64,000 nucleotides of DNA, taken from Escherichia coli (lineage in GTDB: Bacteria > Pseudomonadota > Gammaproteobacteria > Enterobacterales > Enterobacteriaceae). Location of the stretch: assembly GCF_036507355.1 (NCBI RefSeq), contig NZ_AP027877.1, one strand, 5' to 3'. The notes beneath the pieces are model-generated. The model did no database searches, was not told the DNA's origin, and worked only from the letters and a program-made list of their open reading frames with translations. Made by a program: the position numbers and the translations under genes. This document shows, piece after piece, positions 6,272 to 16,815 of this stretch (the first letter of the stretch is position 1; the number at the start of each line of letters is the position of its first letter).

Positions 6272-6685
6272 ATGGCTAATAAACCTTCGGCAGAAGAACT
6301 GAAAAAAAATTTGTCCGAGATGCAGTTTTACGTGACGCAGAATCATGGGACAGAGCCGCCATTTACGGGTCGTTTACTGCATAACAAGCGTGACGGCGTA
6401 TATCACTGTTTGATCTGCGATGCCCCGCTGTTTCATTCCCAAACAAAGTATGATTCCGGCTGTGGCTGGCCCAGTTTCTACGAACCGGTAAGTGAAGAAT
6501 CCATTCGTTATATCAAAGACTTGTCACATGGAATGCAGCGCATAGAAATTCGTTGCGGTAACTGTGATGCCCATCTGGGGCATGTCTTCCCCGACGGGCC
6601 GCAGCCAACGGGCGAACGTTATTGTGTTAACTCTGCCTCTTTACGCTTTACCGATGGCGAAAACGGCGAAGAAATCAACGGTTGA
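6272..6685 (+). CDS. msrB: Peptide methionine sulfoxide reductase MsrB
   Basis: Translation [28 protein letters not shown] with the CxxC...CxxC zinc motifs of MsrB; ORF-track GTG start at 6242 trimmed to ATG 6272. Confidence 0.93.
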
Positions 6686-6726
6686 AAAAACGATTCAGCA
6701 ACTTATTCCACAGGAGCGGAAAAATT

Positions 6727-6999
6727 ATGGATCTTGATGACATTATCAACAGCATGACGCCTGAGGTATACCAGCGTTTGTCGACCGCCGTTGAACTGGG
6801 GAAATGGCCTGATGGCGTTGCGTTGACCGAGGAACAAAAAGAGAACTGCCTGCAACTGGTGATGCTGTGGCAAGCCCGCAATAATACCGAAGCACAGCAT
6901 ATGACAATTGACACAAATGGTCAGATGGTCATGAAGAGCAAACAGCAGTTAAAAGAAGATTTTGGTATCTCAGCAAAGCCGATTGCCATGTTTAAGTAA
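6727..6999 (+). CDS. yeaC: DUF1315 family protein YeaC
   Basis: 90 aa from ATG 6727 (MDLDDIINSMTPEVYQRL); the ORF-track upstream extension would overlap the msrB 3' end. Confidence 0.85.
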   Translation: MDLDDIINSMTPEVYQRLSTAVELGKWPDGVALTEEQKENCLQLVMLWQARNNTEAQHMTIDTNGQMVMKSKQQLKEDFGISAKPIAMFK

Positions 7000-7258
7000 G
7001 TGGTTCATCCCCTTTTTGCCGCGGCTATGAAGGGGATAGCCAACAATGACCCCACGACTCATCTCAATTATCTCGCCATGACCTGGCTAAGTCCCAGTCC
7101 GATCTCTTGCCGTCGCGTTCACACCTGAATGACTTCTCCTGAACTTAAGTCTCAGACCTATTTGGCCGGTAATCCCTCTCGAATTTGCTCTTTTTGCGCC
7201 CCGCCTTCCATCAACCTGTAACAGACCCAGCCATTTTCTGCGTAATTGTGATCTGAGT

Positions 7259-7290
7259 TGTAAAACGCAGATCATTATCTGTGTTTTACA
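7259..7290. repeat. 14 bp inverted repeat (hairpin or operator-like) upstream of ydjL
   Basis: TGTAAAACGCAGAT-CATT-ATCTGTGTTTTACA, one mismatch, about 80 bp upstream of the ydjL start. Confidence 0.5.
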
Positions 7291-7368
7291 GATTTAATGT
7301 TGATCTCAAAAATCATGTGGGTAAGTATGATGGCCATCTAAGCAAAACTAAACACAGAGGATGACGCA

Positions 7369-8445
7369 ATGAAAGCACTGGCTCGGTTTGGCAAGGCCTT
7401 TGGCGGCTACAAGATGATTGATGTCCCACAACCCATGTGTGGCCCGGAAGATGTAATGATTGAAATTAAAGCCGCGGCAATCTGCGGCGCAGACATGAAG
7501 CACTACAATGTCGATAGCGGTTCTGATGAGTTTAACTCTATCCGCGGCCATGAGTTCGCAGGTTGTATTGCGCAGGTTGGTGAAAAAGTCAAAGACTGGA
7601 AAGTGGGGCAACGCGTCGTATCGGATAACAGCGGTCACGTTTGCGGCGTTTGTCCGGCCTGTGAACAAGGTGATTTTCTGTGTTGTACAGAAAAAGTAAA
7701 CCTTGGTCTGGATAATAATACCTGGGGCGGTGGTTTTTCCAAATATTGTCTGGTTCCTGGTGAAATTCTCAAAATTCATCGTCATGCGTTGTGGGAAATC
7801 CCTGATGGTGTTGATTATGAGGACGCAGCCGTACTTGACCCTATCTGTAATGCCTACAAATCCATCGCGCAGCAATCGAAATTCCTCCCTGGTCAGGATG
7901 TAGTCGTCATCGGTACTGGCCCACTTGGGCTGTTCTCCGTACAAATGGCGCGGATTATGGGGGCGGTAAATATCGTCGTCGTTGGTCTACAAGAAGATGT
8001 GGCGGTCCGCTTCCCGGTTGCAAAAGAACTGGGTGCGACGGCAGTAGTAAATGGTTCTACCGAAGATGTGGTGGCGCGCTGCCAGCAAATTTGTGGCAAA
8101 GACAATCTGGGACTGGTGATTGAATGCTCCGGTGCCAATATCGCATTGAAACAAGCCATCGAAATGCTCCGCCCGAACGGGGAAGTGGTACGCGTTGGAA
8201 TGGGCTTCAAACCTCTTGATTTCTCGATTAATGACATTACCGCCTGGAACAAAAGCATCATTGGGCATATGGCCTATGACTCAACCTCATGGCGTAACGC
8301 TATCAGGCTATTAGCCAGCGGCGTTATCAAAGTCAAACCGATGATCACGCATCGTATCGGCCTGTCGCAATGGCGCGAAGGGTTTGATGCGATGGTCGAT
8401 AAAACCGCAATCAAAGTGATCATGACTTACGACTTTGATGAATAA
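7369..8445 (+). CDS. ydjL: Zn-dependent medium-chain dehydrogenase YdjL
   Basis: 358 aa; GHEFAG and Cys-rich structural-zinc motif (CGVCPACEQGDFLCC), Rossmann GTGPLG. Confidence 0.9.
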   Translation: MKALARFGKAFGGYKMIDVPQPMCGPEDVMIEIKAAAICGADMKHYNVDSGSDEFNSIRGHEFAGCIAQVGEKVKDWKVGQRVVSDNSGHVCGVCPACEQGDFLCCTEKVNLGLDNNTWGGGFSKYCLVPGEILKIHRHALWEIPDGVDYEDAAVLDPICNAYKSIAQQSKFLPGQDVVVIGTGPLGLFSVQMARIMGAVNIVVVGLQEDVAVRFPVAKELGATAVVNGSTEDVVARCQQICGKDNLGLVIECSGANIALKQAIEMLRPNGEVVRVGMGFKPLDFSINDITAWNKSIIGHMAYDSTSWRNAIRLLASGVIKVKPMITHRIGLSQWREGFDAMVDKTAIKVIMTYDFDE

Positions 8446-8471
8446 CAACTTTCCTGAAGGAACGTTATCGC

Positions 8472-9851
8472 ATGGAACAGATAACAAAACCGCATTGTGG
8501 TGCACGGCTGGATCGCTTACCGGATTGCCGCTGGCATTCGTCAATGTTTGCCATCGTCGCGTTTGGCTTGCTTGTCTGCTGGAGTAATGCCGTTGGTGGC
8601 TTGATCCTCGCGCAGCTGAAAGCGTTGGGCTGGACAGATAATTCCACCACAGCCACATTCTCAGCAATCACGACCGCCGGAATGTTTCTCGGTGCGCTGG
8701 TGGGCGGCATCATTGGCGACAAAACCGGTCGCAGAAATGCGTTCATCCTCTATGAGGCCATTCATATTGCCTCGATGGTTGTCGGTGCTTTCTCACCGAA
8801 TATGGATTTCCTTATTGCCTGCCGTTTTGTGATGGGAGTTGGGCTGGGAGCTTTACTGGTTACGCTGTTTGCTGGTTTCACCGAATATATGCCCGGTAGA
8901 AATCGTGGAACGTGGTCAAGTCGGGTTTCCTTTATTGGCAACTGGTCATATCCGCTCTGTTCATTGATAGCGATGGGACTCACGCCGCTGATTAGTGCAG
9001 AGTGGAACTGGCGGGTACAACTGCTTATCCCTGCAATATTGTCGCTTATCGCTACGGCGCTGGCCTGGCGCTACTTTCCTGAATCCCCGCGCTGGCTGGA
9101 ATCGCGCGGACGGTATCAGGAAGCCGAGAAAGTCATGCGGAGTATAGAAGAAGGCGTCATACACCAGACGGGTAAACCTTTGCCGCCCGTGGTTATTGCT
9201 GATGACGGTAAAACGCCACAAGCGGTGCCGTATTCAGCCTTACTGACAGGAGTATTACTGAAACGCGTGATATTAGGCTCTTGTGTGCTGATTGCCATGA
9301 ACGTTGTGCAGTACACACTAATTAACTGGTTGCCAACGATATTCATGACCCAGGGGATTAATTTAAAAGACTCGATTGTTTTAAATACCATGAGTATGTT
9401 TGGCGCGCCATTTGGCATTTTTATTGCCATGCTGGTGATGGATAAAATTCCGCGTAAAACAATGGGTGTGGGGCTATTAATCCTGATTGCGGTGCTCGGA
9501 TATATCTATTCACTGCAAACCAGTATGTTGCTCATAACGTTGATTGGTTTCTTCCTGATTACTTTTGTCTATATGTACGTTTGCTATGCCTCGGCAGTGT
9601 ATGTCCCTGAGATCTGGCCGACAGAGGCCAAACTCCGTGGCTCCGGTCTGGCGAATGCGGTAGGGCGAATCAGTGGTATTGCCGCACCTTATGCCGTTGC
9701 AGTGCTGCTCAGTAGTTATGGCGTTACGGGAGTCTTTATTCTTCTGGGGGCAGTTTCAATTATTGTCGCAATTGCTATCGCCACCATTGGAATCGAAACC
9801 AAAGGTGTCTCCGTTGAAAGTTTAAGTATTGATGCAGTAGCCAATAAATAA
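8472..9851 (+). CDS. ydjK: MFS sugar-type transporter YdjK
   Basis: 459 aa, multiple hydrophobic helices, MFS signature GDKTGRR. Confidence 0.9.
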   Translation: MEQITKPHCGARLDRLPDCRWHSSMFAIVAFGLLVCWSNAVGGLILAQLKALGWTDNSTTATFSAITTAGMFLGALVGGIIGDKTGRRNAFILYEAIHIASMVVGAFSPNMDFLIACRFVMGVGLGALLVTLFAGFTEYMPGRNRGTWSSRVSFIGNWSYPLCSLIAMGLTPLISAEWNWRVQLLIPAILSLIATALAWRYFPESPRWLESRGRYQEAEKVMRSIEEGVIHQTGKPLPPVVIADDGKTPQAVPYSALLTGVLLKRVILGSCVLIAMNVVQYTLINWLPTIFMTQGINLKDSIVLNTMSMFGAPFGIFIAMLVMDKIPRKTMGVGLLILIAVLGYIYSLQTSMLLITLIGFFLITFVYMYVCYASAVYVPEIWPTEAKLRGSGLANAVGRISGIAAPYAVAVLLSSYGVTGVFILLGAVSIIVAIAIATIGIETKGVSVESLSIDAVANK

Positions 9852-9867
9852 TACGGGTGGATTCAAA

Positions 9868-10911
9868 ATGAAAAATTCAAAAGCAATATTGCAGGTGCCG
9901 GGCACAATGAAAATTATTTCAGCAGAAATACCAGTGCCTAAAGAAGATGAAGTTTTGATTAAAGTAGAATATGTCGGTATTTGTGGTTCAGATGTACATG
10001 GTTTTGAATCAGGTCCGTTTATTCCGCCTAAAGACCCAAATCAAGAAATTGGCCTGGGTCATGAATGCGCCGGGACGGTTGTGGCTGTGGGAAGCCGCGT
10101 GCGCAAATTTAAACCGGGGGATCGGGTAAATATCGAACCTGGCGTTCCTTGCGGTCACTGTCGTTACTGTCTGGAAGGCAAATATAACATCTGCCCGGAC
10201 GTTGATTTTATGGCGACACAACCCAACTACCGCGGCGCATTAACGCACTATCTGTGTCATCCGGAGAGCTTTACTTACAAACTGCCCGACAATATGGACA
10301 CGATGGAAGGGGCGCTGGTGGAGCCTGCCGCAGTCGGGATGCATGCCGCGATGCTGGCAGATGTTAAACCGGGTAAGAAGATAATTATTCTGGGAGCAGG
10401 TTGTATTGGTTTGATGACGTTGCAAGCGTGCAAATGCCTGGGAGCAACGGAAATTGCCGTCGTTGATGTGCTGGAAAAACGTCTGGCAATGGCGGAACAG
10501 CTTGGTGCGACAGTGGTTATTAACGGCGCAAAAGAAGACACTATTGCACGCTGTCAGCAATTTACCGAAGACATGGGCGCAGATATTGTTTTCGAAACAG
10601 CGGGTTCTGCGGTCACCGTTAAACAGGCACCTTATCTGGTAATGCGCGGCGGTAAAATTATGATTGTTGGTACTGTACCCGGCGATTCGGCAATCAATTT
10701 CCTCAAAATAAATCGCGAAGTTACTATCCAGACGGTATTCCGCTACGCCAATCGTTATCCGGTCACGATTGAAGCTATTTCTTCAGGGCGATTCGATGTG
10801 AAATCGATGGTGACGCATATTTACGATTATCGGGATGTACAACAGGCATTTGAAGAGTCAGTTAACAATAAACGCGACATTATTAAAGGCGTTATTAAGA
10901 TTAGCGATTAA
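9868..10911 (+). CDS. ydjJ: Zn-dependent dehydrogenase YdjJ
   Basis: 347 aa; GHECAG zinc-ligand motif, CGHCRYC structural-zinc motif, GAGCIG Rossmann motif. Confidence 0.9.
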   Translation: MKNSKAILQVPGTMKIISAEIPVPKEDEVLIKVEYVGICGSDVHGFESGPFIPPKDPNQEIGLGHECAGTVVAVGSRVRKFKPGDRVNIEPGVPCGHCRYCLEGKYNICPDVDFMATQPNYRGALTHYLCHPESFTYKLPDNMDTMEGALVEPAAVGMHAAMLADVKPGKKIIILGAGCIGLMTLQACKCLGATEIAVVDVLEKRLAMAEQLGATVVINGAKEDTIARCQQFTEDMGADIVFETAGSAVTVKQAPYLVMRGGKIMIVGTVPGDSAINFLKINREVTIQTVFRYANRYPVTIEAISSGRFDVKSMVTHIYDYRDVQQAFEESVNNKRDIIKGVIKISD

Positions 10912-10931
10912 TTAATACGGGAGAACAGAAC

Positions 10932-11768
10932 ATGCTCGCAGATATCAGATATTGGGAAAACGATGCCACAAATAAACGTTATGCTATTGCCCATTTTAAT
11001 GTATGGAATGCAGAAATGTTGATGGGCGTTATCGACGCAGCCGAAGAAGCGAAATCACCGGTTATTATTTCTTTTGGCACAGGTTTTGTCGGCAACACCT
11101 CATTTGAAGATTTCTCTCACATGATGGTATCAATGGCACAAAAAGCAACGGTGCCGGTAATAACTCATTGGGATCATGGTCGGAGTATGGAGATTATTCA
11201 TAACGCCTGGACTCATGGTATGAATTCATTAATGCGTGATGCTTCCGCATTTGATTTCGAAGAAAATATTCGTTTAACCAAAGAGGCTGTTGATTTCTTC
11301 CATCCGCTGGGTATTCCGGTAGAGGCGGAATTAGGGCATGTCGGTAATGAAACCGTTTATGAGGAAGCTCTGGCGGGCTATCACTATACCGATCCTGACC
11401 AGGCGGCTGAATTTGTTGAACGTACGGGCTGTGACTCATTGGCTGTCGCCATCGGCAACCAGCATGGGGTTTATACGTCAGAGCCACAATTGAACTTTGA
11501 GGTCGTCAAACGCGTACGCGATGCCGTGTCTGTTCCGCTGGTTTTGCATGGCGCATCGGGGATCAGTGATGCCGACATTAAAACTGCAATTTCGTTGGGT
11601 ATCGCGAAAATCAACATCCATACGGAGCTCTGTCAGGCCGCAATGGTCGCAGTGAAAGAAAACCAGGATCAGCCTTTCCTGCATTTAGAACGTGAAGTAC
11701 GTAAAGCTGTAAAAGAACGGGCATTGGAAAAAATTAAACTGTTCGGTTCTGATGGCAAAGCGGAATAA
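10932..11768 (+). CDS. ydjI: Class II (metal-dependent) ketose-bisphosphate aldolase YdjI
   Basis: 278 aa; similarity to the tagatose/fructose-bisphosphate aldolase class II family recognised. Confidence 0.88.
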   Translation: MLADIRYWENDATNKRYAIAHFNVWNAEMLMGVIDAAEEAKSPVIISFGTGFVGNTSFEDFSHMMVSMAQKATVPVITHWDHGRSMEIIHNAWTHGMNSLMRDASAFDFEENIRLTKEAVDFFHPLGIPVEAELGHVGNETVYEEALAGYHYTDPDQAAEFVERTGCDSLAVAIGNQHGVYTSEPQLNFEVVKRVRDAVSVPLVLHGASGISDADIKTAISLGIAKINIHTELCQAAMVAVKENQDQPFLHLEREVRKAVKERALEKIKLFGSDGKAE

Positions 11769-11772
11769 TGAT

Positions 11773-12720
11773 ATGGATAATCTCGACGTTATTTGTATAG
11801 GTGCCGCTATTGTTGATATTCCATTGCAACCGGTCAGTAAAAATATCTTTGATGTGGATTCTTATCCTCTTGAAAGAATCGCAATGACCACCGGGGGTGA
11901 TGCAATAAATGAAGCAACAATTATTTCTCGTCTGGGCCATCGTACAGCATTAATGAGCCGTATTGGTAAAGATGCCGCAGGGCAGTTTATTCTCGACCAT
12001 TGCCGCAAAGAGAATATTGATATTCAAAGCCTGAAGCAGGACGTCAACATAGATACCTCTATTAATGTTGGACTGGTGACGGAGGATGGCGAGCGGACGT
12101 TTGTCACAAACCGTAACGGCAGTCTGTGGAAATTGAATATTGACGATGTTGATTTTGCGCGGTTTTCCCAGGCGAAATTATTATCACTGGCCAGTATTTT
12201 CAACAGTCCACTATTGGATGGTAAAGCGCTAACAGAAATTTTTACGCAAGCTAAAGCCCGGCAGATGATTATCTGTGCCGATATGATCAAACCGCGGTTG
12301 AATGAAACGCTGGATGATATTTGCGAAGCATTGAGTTATGTCGATTATCTGTTTCCTAATTATGCCGAGGCAAAATTACTCACCGGGAAAGAGACACTGG
12401 ATGAAATTGCTGACTGCTTTCTTGCGTGCGGCGTAAAAACGGTGGTGATTAAAACGGGTAAAGACGGCTGCTTTATCAAGCGTGGTGACATGACGATGAA
12501 GGTGCCGGCGGTCGCAGGAATAACCGCCATCGACACCATTGGCGCGGGCGATAACTTTGCTTCAGGTTTTATTGCGGCACTGTTAGAAGGCAAAAATCTG
12601 CGTGAATGCGCACGCTTTGCCAATGCAACGGCGGCTATCTCGGTTCTAAGCGTCGGTGCCACCACCGGCGTAAAAAACAGAAAGCTGGTCGAACAATTGC
12701 TGGAAGAATACGAAGGATAA
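11773..12720 (+). CDS. ydjH: PfkB-family sugar kinase YdjH
   Basis: 315 aa from ATG 11773 (MDNLDVICIG); ribokinase/PfkB family with GAGD motif near the C-terminus. Confidence 0.88.
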   Translation: MDNLDVICIGAAIVDIPLQPVSKNIFDVDSYPLERIAMTTGGDAINEATIISRLGHRTALMSRIGKDAAGQFILDHCRKENIDIQSLKQDVNIDTSINVGLVTEDGERTFVTNRNGSLWKLNIDDVDFARFSQAKLLSLASIFNSPLLDGKALTEIFTQAKARQMIICADMIKPRLNETLDDICEALSYVDYLFPNYAEAKLLTGKETLDEIADCFLACGVKTVVIKTGKDGCFIKRGDMTMKVPAVAGITAIDTIGAGDNFASGFIAALLEGKNLRECARFANATAAISVLSVGATTGVKNRKLVEQLLEEYEG

Positions 12721-12729
12721 TGAAGGCAA

Positions 12730-13710
12730 ATGAAAAAAATACCTTTAGGCACAACGGATATTACGCTTTCGCGAATGGGGTTGGGGACATGGGCCATTGG
12801 CGGCGGTCCTGCATGGAATGGCGATCTCGATCGGCAAATATGTATTGATACGATTCTTGAAGCCCATCGTTGCGGCATTAATCTGATTGATACTGCACCA
12901 GGATATAACTTTGGCAATAGTGAAGTTATCGTCGGTCAGGCGTTAAAAAAACTGCCCCGTGAACAGGTTGTAGTAGAAACCAAATGCGGCATTGTCTGGG
13001 AACGAAAAGGAAGTTTATTCAACAAAGTTGGCGATCGGCAGTTGTATAAAAACCTTTCCCCGGAATCTATCCGCGAAGAGGTAGAAGCCAGCTTGCAACG
13101 TCTGGGTATTGATTACATCGATATCTACATGACGCACTGGCAGTCGGTGCCGCCATTTTTTACGCCGATCGCTGAAACTGTCACAGTGCTTAATGAGTTA
13201 AAGGCTGAAGGGAAAATTCGCGCTATAGGCGCTGCTAACGTCGATGCTGACCATATCCGCGAGTATCTGCAATATGGTGAACTGGATATTATTCAGGCGA
13301 AATACAGTATCCTCGACCGGGCAATGGAAAACGAACTGCTGCCGCTATGTCGTGATAATGGCATTGTGGTTCAGGTTTATTCCCCGCTAGAGCAGGGATT
13401 GTTGACCGGCACCATCACTCGTGATTACGTTCCGGGCGGCGCTCGGGCAAATAAAGTCTGGTTCCAGCGTGAAAACATGCTGAAAGTGATTGATATGCTT
13501 GAACAGTGGCAGCCACTTTGTGCTCGTTATCAGTGCACAATTCCCACTCTGGCACTGGCGTGGATATTAAAACAGAGTGATTTAATCTCCATTCTTAGTG
13601 GGGCTACTGCACCGGAACAGGTACGCGAAAATGTCGCGGCACTGAATATCAACTTATCGGATGCAGACGCAACATTGATGAGGGAAATGGCAGAGGCCCT
13701 GGAGCGTTAA
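12730..13710 (+). CDS. ydjG: Aldo-keto reductase YdjG
   Basis: 326 aa; aldo-keto reductase family sequence recognised. Confidence 0.9.
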   Translation: MKKIPLGTTDITLSRMGLGTWAIGGGPAWNGDLDRQICIDTILEAHRCGINLIDTAPGYNFGNSEVIVGQALKKLPREQVVVETKCGIVWERKGSLFNKVGDRQLYKNLSPESIREEVEASLQRLGIDYIDIYMTHWQSVPPFFTPIAETVTVLNELKAEGKIRAIGAANVDADHIREYLQYGELDIIQAKYSILDRAMENELLPLCRDNGIVVQVYSPLEQGLLTGTITRDYVPGGARANKVWFQRENMLKVIDMLEQWQPLCARYQCTIPTLALAWILKQSDLISILSGATAPEQVRENVAALNINLSDADATLMREMAEALER

Positions 13711-13846
13711 ATACTCAACACGATTCACCTCTGTTTCTGTGAAAACTGTGATGAAAATCTGTGATTCAAACAGGTTATTTTGAAAGTAAACATCGGTTAT
13801 GCGATAATCGCGCTAATGTGATGTAAAAAGATACAGGGGTGTAATC

Positions 13847-14605
13847 GTGGCGGCAAAAGACAGGATTCAGGCAATTAAGCAAATGGTTGCCAACGATAAA
13901 AAGGTGACAGTCTCAAATTTGAGTGGGATTTTTCAGGTAACCGAAGAAACCATTCGCCGCGATCTTGAGAAGCTGGAAGATGAAGGCTTTTTGACCAGAA
14001 CCTATGGTGGTGCTGTTTTAAATACAGCGATGTTGACGGAGAATATCCATTTTTATAAGCGCGCTTCATCGTTTTATGAAGAGAAGCAGCTTATTGCACG
14101 CAAGGCACTACCCTTTATCGACAATAAAACCACCATGGCAGCCGATTCCAGTAGTACCGTAATGGAATTGCTCAAATTGTTACAGGACCGTAGTGACCTG
14201 ACGTTGCTAACCAACTCGGCGGAAGCGATTCATGTTCTGGCTCAGTCAGAAATTAAAGTCGTTTCAACGGGTGGGGAACTAAACAAAAATACACTTTCAC
14301 TGCAAGGAAGAATTACTAAAGAGATCATCAGCCGCTACCATGTCGATATCATGGTAATGAGTTGTAAAGGTCTTGATATTAACAGCGGCGCGCTGGACTC
14401 TAATGAAGCGGAAGCTGAAATCAAAAAGACAATGATCCGTCAGGCGACAGAAGTTGCGTTATTGGTTGATCACTCTAAGTTTGATCGCAAAGCTTTTGTC
14501 CAGTTAGCTGACTTTAGTCATATTAATTACATAATAACTGATAAATCACCGGGTGCAGAGTGGATAGCATTTTGCAAAGACAATAATATCCAGCTGGTGT
14601 GGTAA
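13847..14605 (+). CDS. ydjF: DeoR-family transcriptional regulator YdjF
   Basis: 252 aa; N-terminal helix-turn-helix (VSNLSGIFQVTEETIRRDLEKLE) and DeoR C-terminal sugar-phosphate sensor domain. Confidence 0.9.
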   Translation: MAAKDRIQAIKQMVANDKKVTVSNLSGIFQVTEETIRRDLEKLEDEGFLTRTYGGAVLNTAMLTENIHFYKRASSFYEEKQLIARKALPFIDNKTTMAADSSSTVMELLKLLQDRSDLTLLTNSAEAIHVLAQSEIKVVSTGGELNKNTLSLQGRITKEIISRYHVDIMVMSCKGLDINSGALDSNEAEAEIKKTMIRQATEVALLVDHSKFDRKAFVQLADFSHINYIITDKSPGAEWIAFCKDNNIQLVW

Positions 14606-14722: not shown

Positions 14723-16081
14723 ATGGAACAATATGATCAAATTGGCGCAAGACTGGACCGCTTGCCTTTGGCCCGGTTTCATTATCGTATATTTGGTATT
14801 ATAAGCTTTAGTCTGTTATTAACAGGGTTTTTGAGTTACTCCGGTAATGTCGTCTTAGCAAAGCTGGTAAGCAATGGATGGTCAAATAATTTCCTCAATG
14901 CCGCCTTTACCTCGGCATTAATGTTTAGTTATTTCATCGGCTCTCTTACCGGTGGGTTCATCGGTGATTACTTTGGGCGGCGCAGGGCGTTTCGCATAAA
15001 TCTTCTCATCGTCGGTATTGCTGCAACAGGGGCCGCTTTTGTCCCTGATATGTACTGGCTCATCTTCTTTCGCTTCCTGATGGGAACAGGAATGGGGACG
15101 CTGATTATGGTTGGCTATGCCTCATTTACGGAGTTTACCCCCGCGACGGTGCGTGGAAAATGGTCCGCGCGGCTCTCATTTGTTGGTAACTGGTCGCCCA
15201 TGCTGTCTGCGGCGATAGGCGTGGTGGTTATCGCTTTTTTTAGTTGGCGGATAATGTTTCTGCTGGGTGGTATTGGCATACTGTTAGCCTGGTTTCTCTC
15301 AGGTAAATACTTTATCGAGTCGCCACGATGGCTGGCAGGGAAAGGGCAAATCGCAGGTGCAGAATGCCAACTTCGTGAAGTAGAGCAGCAAATTGAAAGA
15401 GAGAAGAGTATTCGTTTACCCCCGCTTACTTCGTATCAGAGCAACAGCAAAGTTAAAGTAATCAAGGGTACTTTCTGGCTCCTGTTTAAAGGTGAAATGT
15501 TACGACGTACATTAGTCGCGATTACTGTTTTAATTGCAATGAACATTTCGCTTTATACCATCACCGTATGGATACCGACCATATTTGTTAACTCCGGCAT
15601 TGATGTCGATAAATCAATATTAATGACCGCTGTTATTATGATTGGCGCTCCGGTAGGAATATTTATTGCGGCATTAATTATTGATCATTTTCCTCGTCGG
15701 TTATTTGGCTCCACCTTACTTATTATTATTGCCGTGTTAGGCTATATCTATTCAATTCAGACTACAGAGTGGGCGATTTTAATCTATGGCCTGGTGATGA
15801 TCTTCTTTTTATACATGTATGTTTGCTTCGCGTCGGCGGTTTATATCCCGGAGCTTTGGCCAACGCATTTACGCCTGCGCGGTTCGGGTTTCGTTAATGC
15901 CGTCGGACGGATCGTCGCAGTCTTCACGCCCTATGGCGTTGCGGCATTATTAACACATTATGGGTCGATCACGGTGTTTATGGTGCTTGGTGTCATGTTA
16001 GTGCTCTGTGCGCTGGTTCTCTCTATTTTTGGCATCGAAACGCGGAAGGTGTCGCTGGAAGAGATTTCTGAGGTGAACTAA
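14723..16081 (+). CDS. ydjE: MFS transporter YdjE
   Basis: 452 aa from ATG 14723 (MEQYDQIGARLDRL), paralogous to ydjK; the ORF-track upstream extension has no support. Confidence 0.88.
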   Translation: MEQYDQIGARLDRLPLARFHYRIFGIISFSLLLTGFLSYSGNVVLAKLVSNGWSNNFLNAAFTSALMFSYFIGSLTGGFIGDYFGRRRAFRINLLIVGIAATGAAFVPDMYWLIFFRFLMGTGMGTLIMVGYASFTEFTPATVRGKWSARLSFVGNWSPMLSAAIGVVVIAFFSWRIMFLLGGIGILLAWFLSGKYFIESPRWLAGKGQIAGAECQLREVEQQIEREKSIRLPPLTSYQSNSKVKVIKGTFWLLFKGEMLRRTLVAITVLIAMNISLYTITVWIPTIFVNSGIDVDKSILMTAVIMIGAPVGIFIAALIIDHFPRRLFGSTLLIIIAVLGYIYSIQTTEWAILIYGLVMIFFLYMYVCFASAVYIPELWPTHLRLRGSGFVNAVGRIVAVFTPYGVAALLTHYGSITVFMVLGVMLVLCALVLSIFGIETRKVSLEEISEVN

Positions 16082-16132
16082 ATCTTTCGTTGATGGCGTC
16101 CATTACCAGATGTACTACCGACGTGTTTTATC

Positions 16133-16165
16133 TGGCCTACAATGCCAGTACAGAATTGTAGGCCA
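16133..16165. repeat. Perfect 11 bp inverted repeat between convergent ydjE and pncA (probable bidirectional terminator or REP-like unit)
   Basis: TGGCCTACAAT-N11-ATTGTAGGCCA; the GGCCTAC motif is typical of REP ends. Confidence 0.55.
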
Positions 16166-16173
16166 GCGTAAAA

Positions 16174-16815
16174 TTACCCCTGCGTCTCTTCCCAGTCTGC
16201 CAGCGTATATAGCGTTGCCCCAGCTGCTGACATTTCCATAAACGCGTGCGCACTGTCCTGTGGCTGGATATTCACCCCACGACAGCCATCGGTAATCACG
16301 TTTACCTTATAACCTAACTGTAACGCGTCCAGCACGGTAAACTTCACGCAATAGTCAGTAGCCAGGCCCATAACGATCAATTCATCGATTTCATGATCGC
16401 GTAACCAGTCATCAAGCGAGGTTTTCTGCCGACGGCCGTTATCAAAAAAGGCACTGTAACTGTCAACTAAAGGATTTTCGCCTTTATGGAACACCGCTGC
16501 GATCGCTTTTTGGTTCAGTAACGGATGTAATTGTGCGCCTTCACTGTTCTGCACACAGTGATCTGGCCAGAAGGTTTGTGGCAAACCGTCGAGTTGACCT
16601 GGCGTATAAGGCTCTACACAGTGCTGACTGGCAAAACTGCCGTGATTCGCTGGGTGCCAGTCCTGACTGGCGATAACCGCTTCACCGCGCGACAGGCACC
16701 AGTCAATCAGGCGGTTAGCGACATCCACCGTACTGTCACCCTCCGGCACGGCGAGCGCGCCACCAGCACAGAAATCATTTTGTAAATCGACCAGTAACAG
16801 GGCGCGAGGGGGCAT
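16174..16815 (-). CDS. pncA: Nicotinamidase/pyrazinamidase PncA
   Basis: 213 aa from ATG 16815 (MPPRALLLVDLQNDFCAGG), isochorismatase-fold nicotinamidase. Confidence 0.93.
   Translation of the reverse strand: MPPRALLLVDLQNDFCAGGALAVPEGDSTVDVANRLIDWCLSRGEAVIASQDWHPANHGSFASQHCVEPYTPGQLDGLPQTFWPDHCVQNSEGAQLHPLLNQKAIAAVFHKGENPLVDSYSAFFDNGRRQKTSLDDWLRDHEIDELIVMGLATDYCVKFTVLDALQLGYKVNVITDGCRGVNIQPQDSAHAFMEMSAAGATLYTLADWEETQG

Follow-up and report, generated by a model that had tools for sequence, protein, structure and literature searches.

The features of the glp, deo, gut (srl), aga, and CytR systems are well established, and they provide the closest described counterparts of the control region considered here. 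GlpR, a DeoR-family protein, acts alongside CRP at sugar-catabolic promoters, where it recognizes partly palindromic units that repeat every ~20-21 bp. DeoR binds 16-bp palindromes at deo and forms loops between multiple operators. At gut (srl) and aga, a specific DeoR-type repressor (SrlR, also called GutR, and AgaR, respectively) is combined with activation by CRP. Finally, CytR, positioned upstream of the -35, interferes with CRP and in this way silences a CRP-dependent promoter.

The ydjLKJIHG operon of Escherichia coli can be set beside these systems. Two "healthy-gut" sensor triggers have been validated, and its promoter is one of them; the authors of that work describe the function and regulation of the operon as largely uncharacterised (PMC6561318). 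Similarly, YdjF is among the E. coli K-12 transcription factors that are still listed as uncharacterised (PMC4797297), and we found no published YdjF operator, binding, footprint, ChIP, or SELEX data in the searchable literature. In the stretch of E. coli DNA analysed here (64 kb in all, hereafter the window), an inverted repeat precedes ydjL. With a probability of roughly 55%, we read this repeat as the junction of two predicted YdjF operators upstream of the ydjL -35, from which YdjF would repress a CRP-dependent promoter by exclusion. An arrangement of this type, in which CRP and a dedicated repressor jointly control a sugar operon, would be textbook, but for YdjF the searchable literature describes none.

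The inverted repeat and the ydjL control region

The locus is arranged as gapA (minus strand), msrB, yeaC (ending at 6999), a 369-bp gap, ydjL, ydjK/J/I/H/G, ydjF, and ydjE. The yeaC-ydjL gap is 99.7% identical to that of E. coli strain C and 99.2% identical to those of K-12-like strains. A preliminary description of this DNA had reported a near-perfect 14-bp inverted repeat at 7259-7290, about 80 bp upstream of ydjL. The repeat finder confirms it: 13 of the 14 positions are complementary (93%) around a 4-nt loop, and the measured distance from the end of the repeat to the ydjL ATG is 78 nt. The sole mismatch between the arms, G7267 against T7282, would be a G-U wobble in plus-strand RNA. The left arm is invariant in 10 diverse E. 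coli strains; in the right arm there are two single-strain variants, 7282 T>C, which perfects the repeat, and 7286 T>C.

Under the criteria of arms of 14 nt or more, no more than one mismatch, and a loop of 3-8 nt, the window holds two repeats, starting at 7259 and 16132. In 200 dinucleotide-preserving shuffles of the window the mean was 0.135 per 64 kb, and 10.5% of the shuffles held at least one. Scaled to the 369-bp gap by simple arithmetic, the chance is roughly 1e-3. By itself, then, the repeat is improbable by chance, though not overwhelmingly so, and the main reason for considering it nonrandom is the conservation of the surrounding block across genera, which is stronger than the shuffle statistics. 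The other repeat (16132-16166, CTGGCCTACAATGCCAGTACAGAATTGTAGGCCAG) lies between the convergent genes ydjE (ending at 16081) and pncA (ending at 16174), and is probably a bidirectional terminator. A short palindrome at 7216-7224, CTGTAACAG, had been singled out as one of several CTGT/ACAG-containing neighbours of the repeat. It is present, but it falls in a part of the gap that is not conserved. Since its counterpart in the nearest Escherichia species is CTGTAACCC, in which the palindrome is lost, and since it also varies within E. coli, it is probably due to chance.

The layout in Table 1 was obtained by aligning all upstream regions on the -35 hexamer. Each arm of the repeat falls within a putative 17-bp operator unit, of which the reported 14 bp are the inner 14 nt. 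The unit centres are 21 bp apart, a spacing of two helical turns that would place both units on the same face of the DNA, and the distal unit, compared with the proximal unit in reverse complement, agrees at 14 of 17 positions.

Table 1. Features of the ydjL and ydjF control regions (positions in the window; distances from the predicted ydjL transcription start)
Feature	Position	Strand	Sequence and remarks
Left arm of repeat	7259-7272		TGTAAAACGCAGAT; equals the right 14 nt of the distal unit
Right arm of repeat	7277-7290		ATCTGTGTTTTACA; equals the left 14 nt of the proximal unit
Distal putative YdjF operator unit	7256-7272		17 bp, AGTTGTAAAACGCAGAT; centre 7264, ~-71
Proximal putative YdjF operator unit	7277-7293		17 bp, ATCTGTGTTTTACAGAT; arms ATCTGT/ACAGAT; centre 7285, ~-50
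CRP-like site	7244-7265		AATTGTGATCTGAGTTGTAAAA; core 7247-7262; centre 7254.5, ~-80.5; overlaps the distal unit
Predicted ydjL -35	7300-7305	+	TTGATC here; TTGACC in other E. coli strains and most genera
Predicted weak ydjL -10	7323-7328	+	AAGTAT; 17-nt spacer
Candidate downstream half-site	7350-7359	-	Reverse complement CTCTGTGTTT; before and overlapping the Shine-Dalgarno AGAGGA (7356-7361)
ydjL	7369-8445	+	First gene of ydjLKJIHG; ATG at 7369
Matching pair of units upstream of ydjF	13735-13744 and 13757-13773	+	TTCTGTGAAA and ATCTGTGATTCAAACAG; starts 22 bp apart
ydjF promoter	13780-13808	+	TTGAAA-17-GATAAT
ydjF	13847-14605	+	DeoR-family regulator; candidate binding protein

The TTGA of the predicted -35 does not change across 25 Enterobacterales, and the -10 is AAGTAT, AATTAT, AATGAT, or GATAAT. 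A consensus promoter scan passes over this weak -10 and calls TTTACA-17-AAAAAT at 7285-7313 instead. As a candidate for the main ydjL promoter we rejected the latter: it is the better consensus match in E. coli, but its -10 is not conserved. It is a possible ydjL promoter, and we prefer TTGAC-17-AAGTAT because it is conserved and also fits the layout in Firmicutes. The transcription start is predicted near 7335, and the positions of about -71 and -50 for the units and -80.5 for the CRP-like site are computed from that prediction.

Farther downstream, the repeat finder pairs 7272-7286 with 7350-7364 (87% complementary). The E. coli half-site here is weak, with a matrix score below threshold; at the equivalent place Symbiopectobacterium has ATCTGTAAAT, which scores 11.7 bits.

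The region also contains two Dam GATC sites 20 bp apart, one in the CRP-like box (7250-7253) and one at the inner end of the distal unit (7270-7273). Methylation of these sites could reveal occupancy in vivo. The predicted -35 differs at 7304 between this strain (TTGATC) and K-12 and eight other E. coli strains (TTGACC), and the change adds a third GATC.

With YdjL as the query and one genome per species, orthologous clusters were found in 25 Enterobacterales; the same scan returned clusters in many gut Firmicutes and in one Atopobiaceae genome. About 130 bp directly before ydjL are conserved across the 25 Enterobacterales, with the consensus TATTTGTGATCTgAGTTGTGAAATGCAGATCaatATCTGTGTTTTAAAGATTTaatGTTGACC, 17 nt, and then AAGTAT. 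In Citrobacter, Klebsiella, Raoultella, and Yokenella the gene 5' of ydjL is a different and divergent one, and because the block is kept even there, it goes with ydjL and not with yeaC.

The preliminary description had named conservation of the palindrome in Enterobacteria as a check on its function. The block and the arm sequences are indeed kept, but the 14-bp symmetry about 7274.5 is not: its value is 13/14 in both E. coli and E. whittamii, is 12/14 in a third Escherichia, ranges over 8-12/14 across Citrobacter, Klebsiella, and relatives, and drops to 5/14 in Enterobacillus. From this comparison the symmetry is incidental, and it is the sequences that are conserved. The best-conserved part of the block is the proximal unit, which in Enterobacillus and Serratia is a perfect palindrome with 7-bp arms, ATCTGTGTTTCACAGAT. 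The distal unit is conserved as AGTTGTGAAATGCAGAT in Citrobacter and Klebsiella. In Serratia sp. H1w it is replaced by ATCTGCGAAAC in direct orientation, 21 bp upstream, and Symbiopectobacterium, with the 21-bp spacing unchanged, has another palindrome in its place, TCTTCAATGTGAAGA. In more distant Enterobacterales it is poorly kept, which counts against our preferred reading. The original suggestion of a dimeric regulator binding site divides accordingly into two parts. A role as a regulator site is well supported by the comparisons, but a single dimer palindrome is not; since each arm is conserved as part of its own 17-bp site, two neighbouring operator units are indicated.

Within E. coli, 10 columns of 7240-7300 vary among 10 strains, and the block is no less variable than the rest of the gap, a further point against our reading. 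In O157:H7 EC4115 the right half of the proximal unit reads ACATGT instead of ACAGAT owing to the change GA>TG at 7291-7292, and control of the operon in this lineage could differ as a result.

The element is present in 4333 of 5426 E. coli genomes, at a single place in each of the 4333 carriers, and we therefore reject a repetitive extragenic palindrome (REP/BIME and similar). The yeaC-ydjL gap (6990-7380) finds no match in 1093 of the 5426 complete E. coli genomes (~20%), so that the ydj cluster may be missing or rearranged in some lineages; E. coli H30 matches only the yeaC-proximal third of the gap. The records filed as plasmids give no evidence that the promoter block is carried on plasmids. 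The Klebsiella pneumoniae "plasmid" NZ_CP076548.1 is a 221-kb linear record that bears the chromosomal housekeeping genes gapA, msrB, and yeaC as well as the ydj cluster, and is probably a misassigned piece of chromosome, whereas two of the E. coli "plasmid" records are 4.9 Mb long.

A matching motif at ydjF and in other phyla

The motif recurs at the promoter of the regulator itself, as ATCTGTGATTC at 13757 and TTCTGTGAAA at 13735, and the ydjG-ydjF gap reads TTCTGTGAAAACTGTGATGAAAATCTGTGATTCAAACAGGTTATT-TTGAAA-17-GATAAT. The geometry is shared by the two promoters: ATCTGTG starts 23 nt before the -35 at both ydjL (7277/7300) and ydjF (13757/13780), and a TGT(A/G)AAAAC element stands 18-19 nt farther upstream at each. 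The ydjF promoter has been listed as a constitutive RpoD promoter (PMC3946193).

In the ydjL-type clusters of Firmicutes and Atopobiaceae, ATCTKTG(A/T)3 is followed at 23-25 nt by a near-consensus -35/-10, the -35 hexamers outside Enterobacterales being TTGAAA, TTGACT, or TTGACA (Firmicutes). Raw 8-mer enrichment in the Firmicutes upstream regions was drowned by the A/T-rich background, and it was anchoring on the -35 that brought out the motif. At loci L024, L027, L037, and L038 it forms direct repeats of 20-21 bp. In the Atopobiaceae locus, L037, the unit is TTCTGTGAAACACAGAA; the E. coli proximal unit, once reverse-complemented, matches it at 15 of 18 positions.

For scoring, we picked the matrix sites by eye, which counts against our reading; circularity was avoided by building each matrix from one group and testing it on the other. 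The matrix from Firmicutes and Atopobiaceae sites has its best match in the whole window (~128,000 positions) at 7283 on the minus strand (AATCTGTAAAAC, 17.1 bits), which is the proximal unit, and its third-best match at the ydjF promoter. In the opposite direction, the enterobacterial-only matrix was run on 14 nonenterobacterial loci (5.5-9 kb each), and in 7 of them its best match of the whole locus fell no more than 220 nt ahead of the ydjL orthologue, where position alone would lead one to expect ~2% per locus. In L037, which is GC-rich, its top five matches all fall within -129 to -88. A pooled matrix, which included two window sites and excluded the left arm, returned the left arm on the minus strand (ATCTGCGTTTT) as its third-best match in the window.

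The matrix scan found the motif degenerate or absent in the clusters of Megamonas, Anaerococcus, and some Ruminococcus and Eubacterium, which likewise weighs against our reading. The top match in Megamonas (-1932) is inside an ABC-permease ORF and was set aside as chance.

The last gene of the cluster, in E. coli as in each of the four nonenterobacterial clusters that were followed to their end, encodes a DeoR-family protein of 251-253 aa (HTH_DeoR plus DeoRC). This gene is present in the Megamonas and Eubacterium clusters that were followed in this way, despite their poor motif. Its product is 43-56% identical to YdjF, and no other regulator accompanies the cluster. Four of the five proteins share the helix-turn-helix segment VTEETIRRDL, and the fifth has VTPETIRRDL; being almost identical in all, the segment does not discriminate between motif-bearing and motif-poor clusters. 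The ~0.8-kb space between ydjL and ydjK in Firmicutes was examined as a possible home of the regulator and rejected, as it encodes a ribulose-phosphate-3-epimerase-like protein. Many nonenterobacterial clusters have an additional gene of the ribulose-phosphate-3-epimerase family, located between ydjL and ydjK or, in Megamonas, at the cluster end (L059 11086-11769; L037 5002-5781; L024 5016-5822), and E. coli is without one. Its presence may be relevant to the question of the pathway's true substrate.

At the protein level, YdjL and most of the ydj cluster (window 7369-13710) are 76-84% identical between E. coli and the gut bacteria sampled (loci L023-L046, for example L038 4001-5071 and L037 4001-5074). 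The gut Firmicutes with the cluster comprise Lachnospiraceae, Eubacteriaceae, Enterococcus, Anaerococcus, and Megamonas, and the Atopobiaceae genome is to be added to them. Identity at this level is far above what vertical descent would lead one to expect, and argues for recent horizontal transfer among gut bacteria.

We tentatively suggest, at a little short of even odds, that a ydj-type sugar-acid cluster has moved among Enterobacterales, gut Firmicutes, and Atopobiaceae as a self-contained regulatory cassette that kept its DeoR regulator, its operator, and its exact geometry (a distance of 23-25 nt from ATCTKTG to the -35 downstream), and that Enterobacterales then added the CRP half-site. 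If true, the transcription machinery of three phyla accepts one and the same regulator-operator pair, which also supplies the missing control logic of a validated gut-responsive biosensor trigger. The conservation of both motif and spacing across phyla should also make this locus a useful example for the inference of regulons in horizontally transferred clusters.

YdjF as candidate regulator and the competing readings

From its co-occurrence with the motif-bearing clusters, YdjF is the most plausible binding protein. Its best NCBIfam matches are the models for GlpR (top), AgaR, SrlR, and FucR, all under their curated cut-offs. We propose that YdjF would bind the two 17-bp units, probably as two dimers or a tetramer, and perhaps the weak half-site at 7350-7359 as well. 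With no inducer present, it would cover about -80 to -42 and block the docking of both CRP and the alpha C-terminal domain of RNA polymerase, so that the operon would stay silent in laboratory media. By analogy with other DeoR-family regulators, the inducer may be an intermediate of the pathway, a sugar phosphate made by the kinase YdjH, which would release YdjF from the DNA. The ydjL promoter, with its good -35 and weak -10, would then depend on CRP, and the same arrangement at the ydjF promoter would provide autoregulation. A fragment carrying the ydjL promoter is inactive in vitro and becomes active in the mouse gut (PMC6561318), which fits inducible control in which a specific regulator keeps the promoter off.

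The same sites might be used for activation. FucR is a DeoR-family member and an activator, and YdjF could resemble it: bound to its inducer at about -71/-50, it would join CRP in bringing polymerase to the weak -10, in the manner of FucR at the fuc promoters. This role seems unlikely to us. In its favour, the sites are wholly upstream of the -35, an arrangement more typical of activators that counts against repression, and the centre of the repeat, at about -60.5/-61.5 from the predicted start, occupies a classical class I position. Furthermore, the -10 is weak enough to be missed by the promoter scan, the ydjL promoter is silent in vitro, and the FucR model (E = 4e-40) is among the top YdjF matches. 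Most characterised members of the DeoR family are repressors, however, and the NCBIfam names of the YdjF matches agree with this. Repression is also favoured because the motif in Firmicutes precedes near-consensus promoters (TTGACT-17-TAAAAT and TTGAAA-17-TACAAT) that should need no activator, because a third repeat in L037 overlaps the -35, and because the motif at ydjF precedes a constitutive promoter, one that is recognised by RNA polymerase alone (PMC3946193).

CRP has a claim of its own on this region. A TGTGATC box at 7247-7253, absent from the preliminary description, is a perfect CRP left half within AATTGTGATCT, followed by a poor right half (7/10 core matches). Its TGTGA-C is invariant in the 25 Enterobacterales and always lies 30 nt upstream of ATCTGTG. 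In Table 1 of PMC8085971, ydjLKJIHG is entered as activated by Crp, with the "novel and validated" operons of the Crp regulon, and the text gives EMSA binding by Crp for 13 polycistronic promoters; ydjF is listed as a CRP target by genomic SELEX (PMC3105977). These data, together with TGTGA/TGTAA pentamers that recur across both promoters, would suit a block bound mainly by CRP or another global factor, in which the repeat is a set of tandem or degenerate TGTGA-type half-sites. We consider such a block improbable. Judged as a CRP site (TGTGA-N6-TCACA), the repeat itself has fewer than 7 of 10 core matches, and about 6 of 10 by eye for TGTAA-N6-GATCA. In addition, Firmicutes and Atopobiaceae have ATCTKTG at its spacing to the -35 but not the TGTGATC box. 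To our knowledge, these groups lack CRP, and the persistence there of ATCTKTG alone marks the two as separate elements. The CRP site thus probably abuts and overlaps the repeat instead of being the repeat.

Readings at the level of RNA fare worse. The repeat had been judged a poor intrinsic terminator for yeaC, since no T-run follows it, and this assessment is borne out: 4 of the 15 pairs are G-C, the tail is ATTTAATGTT, and the 3' end of yeaC is elsewhere. Term-seq puts that end at K-12 1861655 (window ~7046), after a hairpin at 7007-7037 and 213 nt upstream of the repeat. Among the Term-seq rows listed, two of three conditions have no 3' end in 1854008-1861655, and none is at the repeat. We reject intrinsic termination because of the composition of the stem, the tail, and these data. 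The companion idea of an RNA structure in the ydjL leader is not supported, as the conserved -35/-10 is downstream of the repeat, which would leave the repeat out of any transcript from the predicted promoter.

A hairpin might still act in read-through RNA from msrB-yeaC, or in a long ydjL leader, as a weak terminator, insulator, processing site, or stability element; we hold this to be very unlikely. The predicted plus-strand hairpin is stable (-19.3 kcal/mol, z = -4.4), its one mismatch is the G-U wobble, and a terminator scan flags the repeat with 15 pairs and the tail given above. Transcription also crosses the region. Rho-dependent termination has been assigned to about window 7513 (score 20.7, at the coarse resolution of 800-nt windows), and a ydjL fusion was up more than 2-fold in a rho mutant (Adams et al. 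preprint). The published "ydjL 5' UTR + ORF" fusion begins at ~6892, inside yeaC, and so reports read-through from upstream. Against these points stand the low G-C content of the stem and the missing U-run, the conserved promoter downstream, and the Term-seq rows already mentioned. A scan of 6500-7900 against Rfam (E <= 1) gave no match. Covariation in the 14-pair helix across the 25 Enterobacterales is no better than in shuffles: 85% of cells pair, yet the column shuffles do so too (433/500), and the sole double change is an apparent compensatory change in Raoultella. Moreover, in the genera where the upstream gene is divergent and the block is kept, there is no read-through on which the repeat could act.

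As a separate observation, an AATAAT box at ~6880-6885 lies upstream of the fusion start, and the Term-seq 3' end at ~7046 is abundant and follows its hairpin with no U-run. The interval 6892-7046 could be a ~155-nt RNA derived from the 3' end of yeaC.

Least credible is that the 14-bp symmetry is chance or a lineage-specific by-product with no function of its own: it is near-perfect in Escherichia only, and about 10% of shuffled windows hold such a repeat somewhere, but both arms belong to a block conserved across genera and match the motif of other phyla.

Repression by YdjF at two operator units remains the reading that we prefer. Operators predicted at two promoters, in combination with a CRP site, make the regulation directly testable, and they open a way toward the natural inducer; the physiological substrate of the pathway is uncertain.

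Comparison with known operator systems

The arrangement proposed at ydjL is most easily placed beside glp. Both would join a DeoR-family regulator, partly palindromic units repeated at ~20-21 bp, and CRP at a sugar-catabolic promoter, and a sugar-phosphate inducer is expected for YdjF as it is for GlpR. The recognition sequences are different, with a GlpR consensus of WATGTTCGWT-AWCGAACATW against ATCTGTG-N3-CACAGAT at ydjL, and GlpR sites lie over the promoter, whereas the predicted YdjF sites lie upstream of the -35.

With deo, the ydjL region shares palindromic units of similar size (16-17 bp at ydjL) and the presence of more than one per promoter. The candidate half-site at 7350-7359 would allow looping of the deo type, although it is a weak site. 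The deo system is characterised by an octameric regulator and looping, neither of which is seen at ydjL.

SrlR at gut and AgaR at aga embody the same logic as that proposed for ydjL, a specific DeoR-type repressor with activation by CRP. The gut promoter and ydjL also have in common a GATC inside the regulatory block (7250-7253 and 7270-7273 at ydjL), and the one at gut is nonmethylated. The SrlR and AgaR motifs, in contrast, are unrelated to that of ydjL.

CytR offers an analogy of mechanism only. There, too, a repressor bound upstream of the -35 silences a promoter that depends on CRP, but CytR is a LacI-family protein whose binding is cooperative with that of CRP, whereas what we propose for YdjF at ydjL is simple competition.
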